Positions 1-39,142 of a stretch of DNA of 64,000 nucleotides are shown one piece after another. The notes below the pieces were generated by a model, which was not told the DNA's origin, did no database searches, and saw nothing but the letters and a program-made list of their open reading frames with translations. Each line of letters opens with the position of its first letter. Positions within the stretch are counted from its first letter, which is position 1. Source of the DNA: a virus (taxonomy: Duplodnaviria; Caudoviricetes). The position numbers and the translations under genes were made by a program. Location: the IMG/VR virus record IMGVR_UViG_3300021958_008605, positions 1 to 64,000 of that record; one strand, 5' to 3'.

Positions 1-855
1 TATGCCTTTCATTCTATCTTTGGGAGAATCTAATAAATCAAAACTATAATCAAAAATTTCATCATAAAGTTCGAATCCAAATTCTTGTAATACTTTATGA
101 AATCCTTTTTGTGAATAAACAATAAAAGGTTGTCCTATTAAAATTGATTTACAAGTTTTTTCTGATATTCCTATCATTAAATCATCAGATTCAGTTACTA
201 AATTTATTAATGGATTTCCATATAGTAAATCTTTCCAATAATAATCCCAACCATCAGATGAATCGTAGTTCAGTTTTTTATACTTATTATCAAAATATTT
301 GAAATCAAATGTATCTGCTATCTCACATCCCTTCAACCAGCTATATTCTGAATACTTTAGTAAATTATATTCAGATAACATATCTATCATTTCACATCTA
401 AAATGATGTGATTTAGAATTTAATGAAATAAATAGTTTATTAAATTTTATATTTTTTATATCATTAGATAATTCATATATAATATCTTTACTTAGATAGT
501 TTAAAAAATATAAAAAATAAAGGGGAGTGTTAAATATTTTTATATTTGAATACTTGTTTACAAATGAATATTTTTTTTCTTTAGGATATCCTGATAAACA
601 TATACAAAATATAATATCTTTTTCTATTAAGTTTTTATTATATTTTATCCAAAATTCTTCATACTCATCAGAATCCATTCCATGAAATTCTCGTTCTTGT
701 TCTTCTTGAAATAAAATATATTTTTTATTTTCTTTTGTTGCTGATTCTAAAAAATATTCAAACCAACTATAAGGCTCATTTAAACTACCTTGATAGTTAT
801 AATCGTAAACTTCATTTTTTCTTAATTTATTTATTGGACAAATATATGCGTTCAC
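1..855 (-). CDS. Partial CDS (runs off window start): member of unnamed six-paralogue family, putative GT10-like glycosyltransferase
   Basis: Manually translated, not in ORF track. GTG start at 855, open to position 1. Contains FNKLFISLNSKSHHFR...NLVTES...ISEKTCKSILIGQPFI...GFELYDEIFDYSFD, the same motif series as 4918..6090. Confidence 0.8.
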   Translation of the reverse strand, partial: MNAYICPINKLRKNEVYDYNYQGSLNEPYSWFEYFLESATKENKKYILFQEEQEREFHGMDSDEYEEFWIKYNKNLIEKDIIFCICLSGYPKEKKYSFVNKYSNIKIFNTPLYFLYFLNYLSKDIIYELSNDIKNIKFNKLFISLNSKSHHFRCEMIDMLSEYNLLKYSEYSWLKGCEIADTFDFKYFDNKYKKLNYDSSDGWDYYWKDLLYGNPLINLVTESDDLMIGISEKTCKSILIGQPFIVYSQKGFHKVLQEFGFELYDEIFDYSFDLLDSPKDRMKGI

Positions 856-856
856 C

Positions 857-997
857 TTAATGGTTTTTATAAATAAATGGGTCTCTTTTACGAAGTTCTT
901 CTAATTTCTTTTTGTATTGTTTTTTTAGTTTTCTTCTTACAAAATAGTTTTTAATAGAAGTATAAGGATACAATAATATTTCAATAATTTTTTTCAT
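857..997 (-). CDS. Small basic hypothetical protein (46 aa)
   Basis: Manually translated: MKKIIEILLYPYTSIKNYFVRRKLKKQYKKKLEELRKRDPFIYKNH. Fills the gap exactly between flanking genes on the same strand. Confidence 0.7.
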   Translation of the reverse strand: MKKIIEILLYPYTSIKNYFVRRKLKKQYKKKLEELRKRDPFIYKNH

Positions 998-999
998 AT

Positions 1000-1548
1000 T
1001 TAATTTTTATAATATAATTGAGGATATTCTACTAATATATGTATTCCTCCCTCAGATAAAGCCTTCTTATATGCTGGTAAAATTTTATCTGGTGAATCTA
1101 ATTTTTCAATAGTACAGTTTGTAACCATCTGTTTAAATGCATCGGTGTAATCTGCTTTATGTTGATGACCAGGGTCTAATGGTTCATCCGAGCCTTTACC
1201 AACTCTTACAATTACATTTGGTTTCCATTCACCATCTGACATTACTTCTAATTTATCCAAGTGATTAATTAATTGATTTACTGCAAGAATAACAAAATCC
1301 CATCTTGGGTAAAAAGTAACAACTTGATGACCGGTCATTGCCAATCCCATAGTCATTCCCATTTGGGTTTCTTCCATTACTGGTGTTTCTATCATTCTTT
1401 CTTTTGGTAATCCCTCAATAGTTTTACTCATTGGGTTTCCATACCATACGATTTGTTGTCCTATGAAAATTGTTTTTGGGTCATCCATTGCAAGTTTCAT
1501 TGCTTCTGTTAAAGCATCTAAATAAGGTGTGTATTCTGGTTGTGCCAT
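1000..1548 (-). CDS. TPP-dependent enzyme, E1-beta/transketolase pyrimidine-binding subunit (lacks the C-terminal domain)
   Basis: ETPVMEETQMGMTMGLAMTG, NQLINHLDK and GHQH match the transketolase/E1-beta pyrimidine-binding domain; only 182 aa. Confidence 0.85.
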   Translation of the reverse strand: MAQPEYTPYLDALTEAMKLAMDDPKTIFIGQQIVWYGNPMSKTIEGLPKERMIETPVMEETQMGMTMGLAMTGHQVVTFYPRWDFVILAVNQLINHLDKLEVMSDGEWKPNVIVRVGKGSDEPLDPGHQHKADYTDAFKQMVTNCTIEKLDSPDKILPAYKKALSEGGIHILVEYPQLYYKN

Positions 1549-37147: not shown

Positions 37148-37914
37148 CTTTGAAGAATTGTTAGACCTGTTGATGCTGGTTTAGTTTTAAATATACCATT
37201 ATTAAAAAAGTTGAAAATTTCCCATTCTTTATTTTCTTTTAACTCTTTTACCAACTTAGAAGGTCCATTTGTAATTTCTTGATGGTCATTTGTTTTAATA
37301 TCATCTGTAACAATATATTCTTTTTCAAATGATTCATCTGTATCGTGTATTGAAACGATACCATTTGGTGAAAGTAATTTTGTATATAATTCAAAATCTT
37401 TTTTTACATCTTCATAAGAATGACCTGCATCAATATGAAGATAATCTATCTTAATATCTTCTTTTACGAAAAAATTATAATATGCATTTTCAGTAGTATC
37501 TAAAATAACTCTTGGATGAAAGTTTTCTCTAAGAAAACTTTTTTCATCAACCCAATCAGTATTACCACCAATACCATTAGAAGCATCTACAAGATATGTT
37601 ACTCCAATATCACCCCAATTATAATCTCTATTTCCTTCAAAGATTTGTGAATCATATAAATCAACTCTTGATTGTGTCATGATTCGTGGAATGAATCCAC
37701 CACCACTTCCCAAACAAACACAATTTTTTGCTCTCATATAATGAATAATAGAATAAACCAATAATCCATCACCAAGTGTTAAATCAGTTGCTCCATGTGT
37801 CCATCTATAAGGAACTTTTTTTAACTCTACAAAATCATTACCATTAGAATCTTTTTGGTTTGATTGATTGTGAGTAAAAAAATCTTTTATGAAATCAAGG
37901 TTAAAGAGTGTCAT
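37135..37914 (-). CDS. Class I SAM-dependent methyltransferase (Methyltransf_24-like)
   Basis: CLGSGGG, IDYLHIDAGHSYEDVKKD, LSPNGIVSIHD. Confidence 0.85.
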   Translation of the reverse strand: MTLFNLDFIKDFFTHNQSNQKDSNGNDFVELKKVPYRWTHGATDLTLGDGLLVYSIIHYMRAKNCVCLGSGGGFIPRIMTQSRVDLYDSQIFEGNRDYNWGDIGVTYLVDASNGIGGNTDWVDEKSFLRENFHPRVILDTTENAYYNFFVKEDIKIDYLHIDAGHSYEDVKKDFELYTKLLSPNGIVSIHDTDESFEKEYIVTDDIKTNDHQEITNGPSKLVKELKENKEWEIFNFFNNGIFKTKPASTGLTILQRCKN

Positions 37915-37925
37915 ACCTTTTGTAT

Positions 37926-37935
37926 ATATAAATAT
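37926..37935 (-). promoter_or_regulatory. ATATTTATA upstream motif (putative phage promoter)
   Basis: Intergenic, about 12 nt before the methyltransferase ATG (37914). Confidence 0.5.
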
Positions 37936-37942
37936 ATGAAAT

Positions 37943-39142
37943 TTATCTTTGTAATAAATCTTTTATTATTTTTGACCAGTTATCTTTATAATCATATTTT
38001 TTCATATATGATTTTATTTTATTAAATTCTTCTAATCTAACTTCATGAGAATCAAATTGAATTCTTTTTACTGCTTTATCAAATTCGTTTTTAGAACCCG
38101 CTCTATATCTGTAATCTAATTCTTTTGCCCAATCTGTGTGTATAATTGGAAGTTTACCATAATCTACTGCTTGAAATATTGAGTATCCAAATGGTTCTTT
38201 AAAGTAAGCTCCATGAAAAATTCCAAAATCTTTTTTCATAAATGTATGGTGTATTGTTGGATTCCATTGGAAAAACTTTGTATTAGGAAAGGTATAAGTA
38301 GTACTATCTTTTAAATTTTGAAAATCATATTTACCAGTTAAAACATAACCTTCATACCCATGCATCCAATGAATACATTTTCTCGATTCACATCTTGAAG
38401 CAAATCCTAACTTACTATTATCGATTAAATCATTTTGTAATTCAAAGTTGTATTTGAACTCATAGTAGTTTGGAACTTTATAAGTGTAGTTTGGAAAATC
38501 TTTGATAACAGCTGATGAGTTATTTCCTATCCAAACTCGTTCTTTAAATGTTGCAATATAATCATTACAAAATGGTTCATCAACTAAAGTATTAAATTGT
38601 AATCTTTTTAATTCAGGTATTGCATCTACAACTTGTTTCATTTCTTTTGGATACGCATGAATAAAAATCATTTCAAACTTATCTTCATAATGCCAGATAT
38701 GTTCTCTTTTATAATAATGAGAATGAAGTGAATAGATACCACTACATTTTTCTAACCATTCTTTTGTTTTACTTGGGTCATCTCCATGAAAGTGATAATC
38801 CAATCCTTTTGGTAAAGAAGAGGGTTTAAAGTTTGTAGGTCGTTTTGAATCTATAAGTAATTTCCAATTTGTTCTTTTTTGTAAATTAGGCCAAACTGTT
38901 TCTAAAAAATTATTTACCCAAATATCAGCACCACCTTGTATTGTGTTACCTGCACCAGTACAAATCATAACTTTTGTACTTTGTGGTTTAGCTTGATTAA
39001 AGTAAGTTAAATGTTTATCTTTTGGTAACTCTCTGTTAATAGTAGAAATTATTTCATCTACATCAAAAGTATCTCCCATATCGGTAAGATAAGTAAATAA
39101 CCTTTTTTTAATATTTTTTGCTGGAACTCCTTTTATTATCAT
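37943..39142 (-). CDS. GT-B (GT4-like) glycosyltransferase with N-terminal extension
   Basis: GGADIWVN, and EPFGYSIFQAVDYGKLPI resembling the retaining GT-B ExFG(x)E motif. Confidence 0.65.
   Translation of the reverse strand: MIIKGVPAKNIKKRLFTYLTDMGDTFDVDEIISTINRELPKDKHLTYFNQAKPQSTKVMICTGAGNTIQGGADIWVNNFLETVWPNLQKRTNWKLLIDSKRPTNFKPSSLPKGLDYHFHGDDPSKTKEWLEKCSGIYSLHSHYYKREHIWHYEDKFEMIFIHAYPKEMKQVVDAIPELKRLQFNTLVDEPFCNDYIATFKERVWIGNNSSAVIKDFPNYTYKVPNYYEFKYNFELQNDLIDNSKLGFASRCESRKCIHWMHGYEGYVLTGKYDFQNLKDSTTYTFPNTKFFQWNPTIHHTFMKKDFGIFHGAYFKEPFGYSIFQAVDYGKLPIIHTDWAKELDYRYRAGSKNEFDKAVKRIQFDSHEVRLEEFNKIKSYMKKYDYKDNWSKIIKDLLQR

Follow-up and report, generated by a model that had tools for sequence, protein, structure and literature searches.

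Positions 1-39142 of the virus record IMGVR_UViG_3300021958_008605 hold a cluster of 39 genes for making, transferring and tailoring sugars, which lies beside the gene for a giant putative tail-fibre protein. We give roughly an even chance to the reading that this cluster glycosylates the phage's own virion proteins; a more specific and more tentative proposal, to which we lend somewhat less than even weight, is that a two-layer glycan resembling lipopolysaccharide (LPS), with a conserved core and a strain-variable outside, is built in the cytoplasm and attached to the giant tail fibre as a serotype-like coat. Under this proposal, marine virus particles would owe their coat to a widespread cassette specific to phages and to a new family of fucosyltransferase-like (FucT-like) enzymes. 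Pointing to a virion acceptor are the linkage to the fibre gene in ~3 independent lineages, the position of the cluster inside the structural region, a promoter-like motif common with structural genes, lectin-type inserts in the GT7 glycosyltransferases (GTs), sulfo- and carbamoyltransferases among the tail genes, and the lack of membrane steps. The window that we analyzed is the first 64 kb of this single 77,219-bp record, which IMG/VR classes as linear and CheckV puts at ~23% completeness; the contig is one piece of the genome of a large marine myovirus that has not been cultured. Its GC content is ~29%, and all credible genes lie on the minus strand, as do the window's genes and promoter-like motifs described below. 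The 39 minus-strand open reading frames (ORFs) of the cluster have no competing plus-strand genes, and 31 of their 38 junctions overlap or abut, with gaps of 1-10 nt at 4 and larger gaps at 3, much as an earlier note on this DNA, made from the letters alone, had described (~38 co-directional, mostly coupled genes).

Comparison of all window proteins with 18 IMG/VR loci by tblastn divides the cluster into two tiers. A conserved core of ~12 kb (27186-39142) is present at 50-95% identity across the 18 loci, whereas the rest of the cluster (at least 27 kb) is patchy and differs between close relatives. The giant gene (39741-48332), which encodes a putative fibre protein of 2863 aa rich in Ser, Thr and Gly, is always upstream of the core cassette, and the core comes right after it in all 12 loci whose upstream flank spans 5 kb or more. 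In each of these, the giant fibre gene is followed by small ORFs, GT4-like transferase, methyltransferase, GT2-like transferase, GT7-LamG enzymes c, b and a, and twitch-domain radical S-adenosylmethionine (SAM) enzymes. In the relative G001 (IMGVR_UViG_3300023110_001943, 141 kb), 58 kb are syntenic with the contig. There the sugar cluster spans just ~20 kb, and past its far end come a gene for a 1754-aa protein and then the large terminase, portal and prohead protease. This synteny places the cluster within the structural region, with the fibre module on one side and the packaging module on the other.

The cassette also occurs, at 35-57% identity, on contigs binned to Flavobacteriales, Pelagibacterales and other metagenome-assembled genomes (MAGs). 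These contigs, L107-L111 and L113 (NZWA01000002/6, VHCC01000006, CAZUWS010000030, CBFHJJ010000001 and CAYPEJ010000017), come from bins labeled Flavobacteriales, Pelagibacterales, Flavobacteriaceae and Anaeromicropila; all are unidirectional and without multi-transmembrane proteins, and they are probably mis-binned viral contigs or prophage-like elements. One of them, L111, from a second and diverged phage lineage, carries the cassette on a 248-kb contig with a large terminase, and here the cassette follows an unrelated classic tail fibre with 'NWDTAYGWGDHS' repeats and an S74-type C-terminal chaperone, with four small genes in between. In the distant LR756508 (484 kb), a homologue of the GT4-like gene sits between Rad50 and the homologue of the giant gene, and tblastn finds neither the GT7-LamG nor the FucT-like family in that genome. 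We regard the fibre synteny as circumstantial support for a virion target.

To characterize possible membrane and export steps, we searched every ORF of the 77-kb contig with Pfam and found no match to Wzx, Wzy, Wzz, ABC-2 or priming transferases; these negatives cover a contig fragment rather than a whole genome. A Kyte-Doolittle scan of the 39 cluster proteins revealed no transmembrane segments, the sole stretch above threshold being the buried thiamine diphosphate-binding motif of the thiamine pyrophosphate (TPP) enzyme. As a control, the same scan picks up the multi-transmembrane proteins encoded beside bacterial GT7 homologues, and thus it works. No Wzx/Wzy-like protein was found in the 141-kb relative, whose one protein with three transmembrane candidates is encoded far from the cluster, and PF02397 (priming transferase) is absent from the records of three relatives, with positive controls. 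The Pfam and Kyte-Doolittle results agree with the earlier note, which had seen no Wzx/Wzy/Wzz, ABC exporter, priming transferase or transmembrane protein, and its picture of a glycan built in the cytoplasm, with no membrane or export step, is supported by the gene content and the transmembrane scan.

A further tie to the structural genes is the motif ATATTTATA, which is often embedded in ATATATTTATATA. Twelve copies occur on the coding strand in 77 kb, of which 10 are followed by a start codon at a distance of 13-44 nt (P ~1e-11): three ahead of cluster genes, two ahead of the giant gene (48353-48384), and five ahead of genes of the fibre/baseplate region. The copies within the cluster, at 37927-37935, 19417-19425 and 11461-11469, precede the genes at 37135-37914 (by 13 nt), 18236-19399 and 10269-11441; those at 55084-55092 and 57033-57041 lie ahead of fibre genes, and further copies are at genome 69752, 72056 and 72957. 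In G001 the motif precedes a start codon in 19 of 25 cases (P ~2e-17); the copies are concentrated ahead of head, baseplate, fibre, giant and cassette genes as well as the 1754-aa gene, and they are rare in a small-ORF, early-looking region. This distribution suggests that ATATTTATA is likely a late-type promoter common to glycan and structural genes. The T4 late box TATAAATA was rejected as a candidate, since it is not enriched upstream of genes (7 matches, 1 intergenic), and a scan for sigma-70 and terminator consensus was uninformative, with fewer promoter-like sites than in shuffled sequence. Just upstream of the motif, at 55066-55153 and at genome 72034-72134 and 72366-72567, there are GC-rich hairpins with T-runs that resemble intrinsic terminators and delimit transcription units in the tail region.

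Enzymes of the cluster

The content of the cluster was assigned by Pfam, NCBIfam and PDB sequence searches together with two structure predictions. All NCBIfam equivalog scores except that of NF033640 fall below cut-off, and sugar identities are therefore inferred at class level only; about 10 of the 39 ORFs have no family assignment. The searches confirm most of the families named in the earlier note, namely three GT7 enzymes, a GT2-like transferase, a DUF5672 protein, a methyltransferase, an amidinotransferase, three radical SAM enzymes and a TPP enzyme, while the aminotransferase listed there corresponds to a short DegT-like protein (Pfam DegT, E 9e-19).

At least 11 of the cluster genes encode glycosyltransferases. 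Three core paralogues combine a GT7 (beta4GalT-like) enzyme with a LamG insert: group a (30808-32256) and group b (32660-34126) both match Pfam 7N, 7C and Laminin_G_3, with identities of 70-82% in relatives and 60-75% across the 18 IMG/VR loci, respectively, and group c (34844-36304) matches Glyco_transf_7N (E 5e-23) and 7C (E 2e-18). The GT7 domains score 60-83 bits against Pfam cut-offs of 23-27, which assigns them to CAZy family GT7, and they match human and bovine B4GALT1 and B4GALT7 (E 1e-33). In all three paralogues the LamG domain sits between the N and C domains of GT7. The DxD, FGG and WGxEDDD motifs are invariant in 12 GT7-LamG sequences, including orthologues from three relatives; because the catalytic motifs are preserved in each orthologue group, all three enzymes are probably active. 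The core also encodes a GT-A/GT2-like transferase (36305-37147; Glyco_tranf_2_4 at 32.3 bits against a cut-off of 27.5, and a weak NTP_transf_3 match), which is kept in all relatives, and the variable arm adds the DUF5672 protein (14590-15339; Pfam).

The first gene after the fibre module, the core gene at 37943-39142, has no Pfam match and is kept in 14 loci. An AF2 model built from 13 orthologues (predicted local distance difference test, pLDDT, 76.5) matches GT4-type GT-B enzymes in VIA with Z of 17.9-20.5 over ~300-330 residues, among them SPS (6kih, 20.5), HepE (20.2), BshA (19.6) and PglA (18.3), with PimA and WaaG also matched; Foldseek returns 444 GT-B matches. The predicted fold thus bears out the earlier label "GT4-like", which finds no counterpart in any sequence family, and we assign the protein as a GT4-like GT-B at the level of the modeled fold only.

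Six further transferases are paralogues of one another and reside in the variable arm, at 1-855 (truncated), 4918-6090, 10269-11441, 11438-12643, 16930-18258 and in the C-terminal half of 19434-21638. Pfam Glyco_transf_10 is found neither in the six nor in 35 database relatives recovered by profile, and profiles of 6 and of 36 sequences gave nothing useful against PDB sequences, so that a fold prediction was needed. The model (pLDDT 87.7) is a GT-B fold; its VIA matches include Arabidopsis FUT11 (Z 11.5), Helicobacter pylori alpha1,3-FucT (11.4), human FUT9 (10.4) and mango FucT13 (9.8), although these GT10 matches are tied with T4 BGT (11.4) and other generic GT-B enzymes. The family has an invariant E...EK/R pattern (E273, E286, K287) and R172; the E...EK pair may correspond to the FxxENSxxxxYxTEK-like motif of GT10. 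Relatives are encoded on more than 250 viral contigs. The earlier note had called these proteins "GT10-like": a real six-member family with a FucT-like fold is there, whereas GT10 membership by sequence did not hold up, and the model suggests an unannotated GT-B family with a fucosyltransferase-like fold that is not demonstrably part of GT10. A "GT11/23-like" enzyme claimed in the same note was not recovered, as motif and family searches of the cluster gave no HxRRxD-type motif and no family match.

Most of the predicted nucleotide-sugar enzymes are also in the variable arm. The cluster has seven short-chain dehydrogenase/reductases (SDRs), and from Pfam and NCBIfam the mid part of the arm (12643-21638) contains a nucleoside diphosphate (NDP)-hexose 4,6-dehydratase (12643-13650), an SDR nearest GDP-fucose synthase (Fcl-like; 13647-14603), the DUF5672 protein, a GalE/UXS-like SDR (15321-16325), an SGNH-like esterase candidate (16322-16930), a FucT-like GT-B, an NDP-sugar 6-dehydrogenase (18236-19399) and an SDR fused to a FucT-like GT-B, assigned by family and paralogy (19434-21638). 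The esterase candidate, which has a weak GDSL match and GDS at residue 7, is the only one that a signature search returned in place of the four SGNH proteins of the earlier note. The left part (1-12643) carries four FucT-like GT-B enzymes, two more Fcl-like SDRs (1548-2480 and 9298-10272), an RmlC-like epimerase (6080-6664), a split TPP enzyme of E1alpha/E1beta type (4290-4934 and 1000-1548), and a kinase like HldE domain I with an N-domain of no known family (6664-8112), followed by a free paralogue of that N-domain (8109-8927). A virus-only paralogue pair occupies 2473-4286 (ESM Atlas, paralogy): the ORF at 2473-3411 falls in virus-only ESM Atlas families, and PDB sequence searches gave no useful match for it or for the ORF at 26021-27178.

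The third part of the variable arm is an amino-sugar tailoring block (21608-27178) of amidinotransferase, ORF, B12 radical SAM enzyme, DegT-like protein and ORF, which among the 18 loci is common to L017 only. The amidinotransferase (21608-22618) matches StrB1 (1bwd) over its full length with E 5e-98, with a weak Pfam match, and the B12 radical SAM enzyme (Radical_SAM plus B12-binding) resembles the KedN5-like C-methyltransferase type, scoring 228 bits with NF033712, below its cut-off.

Within the core, tailoring genes accompany the transferases. A SAM-dependent methyltransferase (37135-37914; Methyltransf_24, E 2e-11) is 62-80% identical in relatives, and two twitch-domain radical SAM paralogues (27186-28643 and 29393-30811), with a 248-aa ORF of no known family between them, score 280.6 and 314.5 bits with NF033640 (N_Twi_rSAM) against a curated cut-off of 170. 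This NF033640-type family has more than 5000 metagenomic homologues, many of them fused forms of ~698 aa. The number of copies is 2 here and 1 in G001, with ~5-6 tandem or dispersed paralogues in L009, L010, L011 and L013 (e.g., L011:11452-17919), and a copy 38% identical occurs in the Ralstonia jumbo phage RsoM2USA. A small HIGH-family nucleotidyltransferase (HldE domain II/TagD-like; 32253-32663) has a CTP_transf_like match (E 3e-11) and scores 60 bits with rfaE_dom_II and 49 bits with TagD, both below cut-off. An 81-aa helical protein (34095-34340), kept in every cassette lineage including L107-L113, is always just upstream of GT7-LamG b and has a conserved core of the form '...ALE.IA......W......W.ER.EWYL.EF...' with an NRPxR tail; it may be an adaptor or scaffold. 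Beside it lies a variable coiled-coil protein (34312-34869), and neither ORF of this pair (34095-34869) has a family match.

Based on this content, we propose the following pathway, for which we infer the sugar identities, the order of steps, the late timing and the acceptor. The core cassette would draw on nucleotide sugars of the host to assemble a conserved inner glycan. The contribution of the variable arm would be 6-deoxyhexoses, through the 4,6-dehydratase, the three Fcl-like epimerase/reductases and the RmlC-like enzyme, as well as a uronic acid and a kinase-activated sugar; the TPP enzyme may extend or branch a sugar, and one sugar would be aminated, amidinated and C-methylated. The six FucT-like GT-B paralogues would then attach these unusual sugars to form an outer layer that varies. 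As acceptor, a protein of the phage particle is most likely, foremost the giant fibre encoded directly upstream; it would be glycosylated in the cytoplasm at a late stage of infection, either ahead of tail assembly or while it proceeds.

Flanking genes and phage context

Beyond the cluster the order is two small ORFs, the 2863-aa protein, Mre11-Rad50, primase, a SegE-like nuclease and a sulfotransferase; farther out are several large Ser/Thr-rich proteins, gp6-like and gp25-like baseplate proteins and a carbamoyltransferase. The tail genes among these, the fused equivalents of gp47/46 and the primase are the neighbors that the earlier note had named. The small ORFs (39152-39723; phrog_20196, with a weak Phage_tail_APC match at E 0.005) are possibly fibre assembly factors. 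Residues 1858-1975 of the giant protein match a "virion structural protein" of Cellulophaga phage phiST, and its sole Pfam match, Intein_splicing/Hint at residues 2459-2583, is just under the cut-off (E 1.5e-8); this Hint domain aligns with a 1386-aa ORF in LR756508. PHROGs provided no function for the giant protein, for a 1823-aa protein (57061-62532) or for most ORFs of the fibre region. The Mre11-Rad50 fusion (48563-51721; 1052 aa, equivalent to T4 gp47/gp46) is kept in relatives, with 37% identity in Microcystis phage Mel-JY01 and 87% in G001; in LR756508 the match is split in two pieces with ~1 kb of extra DNA between.

Two potential modifying enzymes lie among these genes. The sulfotransferase (53126-53707; Sulfotransfer_2, E 2e-18) has a 64% identical orthologue at the same position in G001, and a carbamoyltransferase of NodU/Nol type (genome 73006-74724, L001:11006-12724; 243 and 208 bits) is found near the baseplate genes, a position also conserved in G001. 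They may be further glycan-tailoring enzymes encoded outside the cluster.

At 37-43% protein identity, Mel-JY01, Flavobacterium phage immuto and the 484-kb uncultured phage come closest among GenBank phages; in Mel-JY01 the genes for baseplate, fibres, nuclease, primase and Rad50 are ordered as they are here. That the contig belongs to a phage, as the earlier note had assumed, follows from its status as an IMG/VR virus record, its baseplate genes and its syntenic relative with terminase, portal and prohead protease; on these grounds an origin from a bacterial chromosome was rejected. As for the host, fibre segments that match Bacteroidota phages, and the bins of the MAG contigs, give no more than a hint. 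The left contig end cuts the cluster and truncates its last gene (1-855). From synteny with G001, only the tail of this gene appears to be missing, and an orthologue of the 1754-aa gene would be expected just beyond the end. The 1754-aa protein (G001 125877-131141, L105:5877-11138) has a cytidylyltransferase-like domain at its N-terminus, DUF5661 and an HD domain, and the promoter-like motif stands ahead of its gene.

Acceptor and alternative explanations

Several observations weigh against a virion acceptor. Synteny within a lineage is inherited, so the fibre linkage amounts to only ~3 independent observations. A glycan on a virion protein is a prediction from gene content. A search of the giant protein for a mucin-like acceptor tract came up empty, and no cluster enzyme is closer to a known protein-priming O- or N-glycosyltransferase than to generic GT-A/GT-B enzymes. 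The late class of the promoter-like motif is deduced from the genes that it precedes, and one-mismatch variants occur ahead of the primase (52663-52701), as well as at genome 76346-76420. In addition, the tripeptide [S/T]-G-S, which shows a 4-6 fold enrichment in the giant protein and the 1823-aa protein (window 39433-62532; 26 copies of [ST]GS in the giant against 7.3 expected), was rejected as the sequon of the cluster: it is equally or more strongly enriched in the fibres of Mel-JY01, which lacks the cassette, and the count is zero in the L111 fibre (L111:3-4259). From these counts, [S/T]-G-S appears to be a property of the fibre family and not a marker of the sugar cluster.

Soluble glycosyltransferases are, moreover, equally typical of lipid-linked LPS and capsule assembly, and because they are normal in those pathways, a cluster free of transmembrane proteins leaves room for remodeling of the host surface, the leading alternative, though one that we consider rather unlikely. 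Here phage-made sugars and peripheral glycosyltransferases would act on host undecaprenyl-linked O-antigen, capsule or core intermediates, and host flippases, polymerases and ligases would export the altered polymer, leading to superinfection exclusion or to escape from grazers or lectins. Published work reads the clusters of P-SSM2, S-SSM7, S-SCSM2R and other jumbo cyanophages in this way, and those clusters have the same enzyme classes and the same polymorphism from strain to strain (PMC3037559, PMC12801897, PMC7824862). The HldE-like kinase and adenylyltransferase-like genes recall the activation of heptose for the LPS core, and bacterial GT7(-LamG) singletons occur in loci with multi-transmembrane proteins. 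On the other hand, the 39 genes include no priming transferase, flippase, polymerase, ligase or transmembrane protein, nor do the contig's other sugar-related genes, and the 141-kb relative has no Wzx/Wzy-like protein. The core is tied to a fibre gene within the structural region rather than placed in a hypervariable island, it has the promoter-like motif in common with structural genes, and late lytic expression would leave scant time for renewal of the cell surface.

Some of the tailoring enzymes would also fit a product that the infected cell makes without exporting it, such as a free glycoconjugate, a small molecule resembling an aminoglycoside or a small protein bearing sugars. Such a product could act against competitors or against defences, or as a compatible solute. 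The StrB1-like inosamine-phosphate amidinotransferase (E 5e-98), the DegT-like aminotransferase, the KedN5-type B12 radical SAM enzyme, the twitch enzymes, whose structural class contains BtrN, and the conserved 81-aa protein inside the cassette are consistent with such a product, and Iyer et al. proposed secondary-metabolite clusters in jumbo cyanophages. We judge it improbable: the amidinotransferase/DegT/B12 block is part of the variable arm and recurs in just 1 of 18 relatives, a set of at least 11 glycosyltransferases points to a large oligo- or polysaccharide, and Pfam scans of the cluster found no cyclitol synthase. Because of its composition, without a Cys-rich or Ser/Thr-rich core, the 81-aa protein was rejected as a precursor like those of ribosomally synthesized and post-translationally modified peptides.

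Hypermodification of phage DNA bases with glycans to evade restriction is very improbable. In its favor, the GT-B models align with T4 alpha- and beta-glucosyltransferases (AGT and BGT; Z 11-18), the AGT family appears in 4 of 30 ESM Atlas neighbor clusters of 37943-39142, and phages are known to decorate their DNA with a variety of glycans (Pyle et al. 2024, cited in PMC12619734). Against it, the likeness to AGT and BGT is that of the generic GT-B fold, tied with dozens of enzymes, the window has no hydroxymethylase-type enzyme, the ThyA homologue of G001 looks like an ordinary thymidylate synthase (310 bits), and the number and variety of glycosyltransferases, the lectin domains, the sulfo- and carbamoyltransferases and the fibre linkage fit poorly. 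The weight left over from these four readings goes to an unknown function or to none.

Comparison with known sugar clusters

Marine phage sugar clusters have been seen since 2005-2010 and have been named "LPS genes", "stuffer DNA" or superinfection-exclusion devices; to our knowledge, none has been functionally tested. The present locus makes this old question testable, because it offers a cassette tied to a tail-fibre gene in at least two lineages, a candidate acceptor and soluble enzymes. If glycosylation of virion proteins proves true, phage particles would carry variable sugar coats, which could affect adsorption, stickiness to particles or mucus, recognition by grazers and decay rates, as well as the reading of phage host range from fibre sequences. 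The lectin-inserted beta4GalT-like enzymes, the FucT-like GT-B family and the abundant twitch radical SAM family are of biochemical interest in their own right.

The closest precedents in scale are the "LPS" clusters of the marine cyanophages P-SSM2, S-SSM7, S-SM2, S-SCSM1 and S-SCSM2R, which likewise span tens of kb in large myoviruses (PMC3037559, PMC12801897, PMC7824862). The earlier note had credited phage systems with only a few glycosyltransferase genes, which understates the large clusters of P-SSM2, S-SSM7 and S-SCSM2R, the last with 13 glycosyltransferases (PMC3037559, PMC12801897). The cluster described here belongs to the same class by its SDRs, RmlC-type cupins, PfkB kinases, HIGH nucleotidyltransferases and many paralogous glycosyltransferases; in both cases the content is sporadic and polymorphic between related phages, and functions are predicted. 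At least 11 glycosyltransferases stand in one block here, versus the published cyanophage maximum of 13 per genome. In contrast to the cyanophage islands, which are linked to tRNA and hli genes, this locus lies between the fibre and packaging modules, with its core syntenic with the fibre gene, and it adds the amidinotransferase, the B12 and twitch radical SAM enzymes and the TPP enzyme. The sequence comparison with the cyanophage clusters covered the GT7-LamG and FucT-like GT-B families; tblastn gave no match for either among 50,697 GenBank phages, cyanophages included.

Freeman et al. are said to have proved by mass spectrometry in 2023 that the C-termini of mycobacteriophage capsid and tail-tube proteins are glycosylated by two to a few glycosyltransferases. 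According to PMC12619734 and PMC11256854, mycobacteriophage glycosyltransferases glycosylate the phages' own structural proteins in the cytoplasm. The present phage is similar in encoding glycosyltransferases (at least 11) that are proposed to act on its own structural proteins in the cytoplasm; it differs in having ~39 genes with whole nucleotide-sugar pathways and a giant-fibre target that is only proposed.

Among giant viruses, Megavirinae make fibril glycans from clade-specific gene clusters and chloroviruses glycosylate their capsids (PMC10117803, PMC9614988). Virus-encoded, host-independent cytoplasmic synthesis of nucleotide sugars together with glycosyltransferases, clade-variable content and rare "bacterial-like" deoxy and amino sugars are features common to those systems and, as predicted from its genes, this one. 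The giant-virus systems decorate outward-facing structures of the particle, whereas here a particle target is only proposed; they belong to another realm, infect eukaryotic hosts and have clusters of ~6-12 genes, as opposed to the larger two-tier cluster of a tailed phage. Homology between the enzymes is at superfamily level only, with Chlorella virus glycosyltransferase structures among the fold matches (3oy2, Z 10.7 and 17.6; 8asa, Z 8.4).

Bacterial O-antigen and capsule loci resemble the cluster in their conserved and hypervariable parts, their deoxy-, amino- and uronic-sugar pathways, their many glycosyltransferases and their co-directional genes; unlike Wzx/Wzy or ABC loci, it lacks a priming transferase, flippase, polymerase, chain-length regulator, ABC transporter, ligase and transmembrane protein. 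Large marine phage sugar clusters, and glycosylation of particles in mycobacteriophages and giant viruses, are thus already known. New are the two-tier architecture, with a fibre-linked, phage-specific core cassette in several lineages; the promoter-like motif that the cluster has in common with head, baseplate and fibre genes; the predicted GT7-LamG and FucT-like GT-B families, which appear to be novel among GenBank phages; and the set of StrB1-like amidinotransferase, TPP enzyme and radical SAM tailoring enzymes in a phage.

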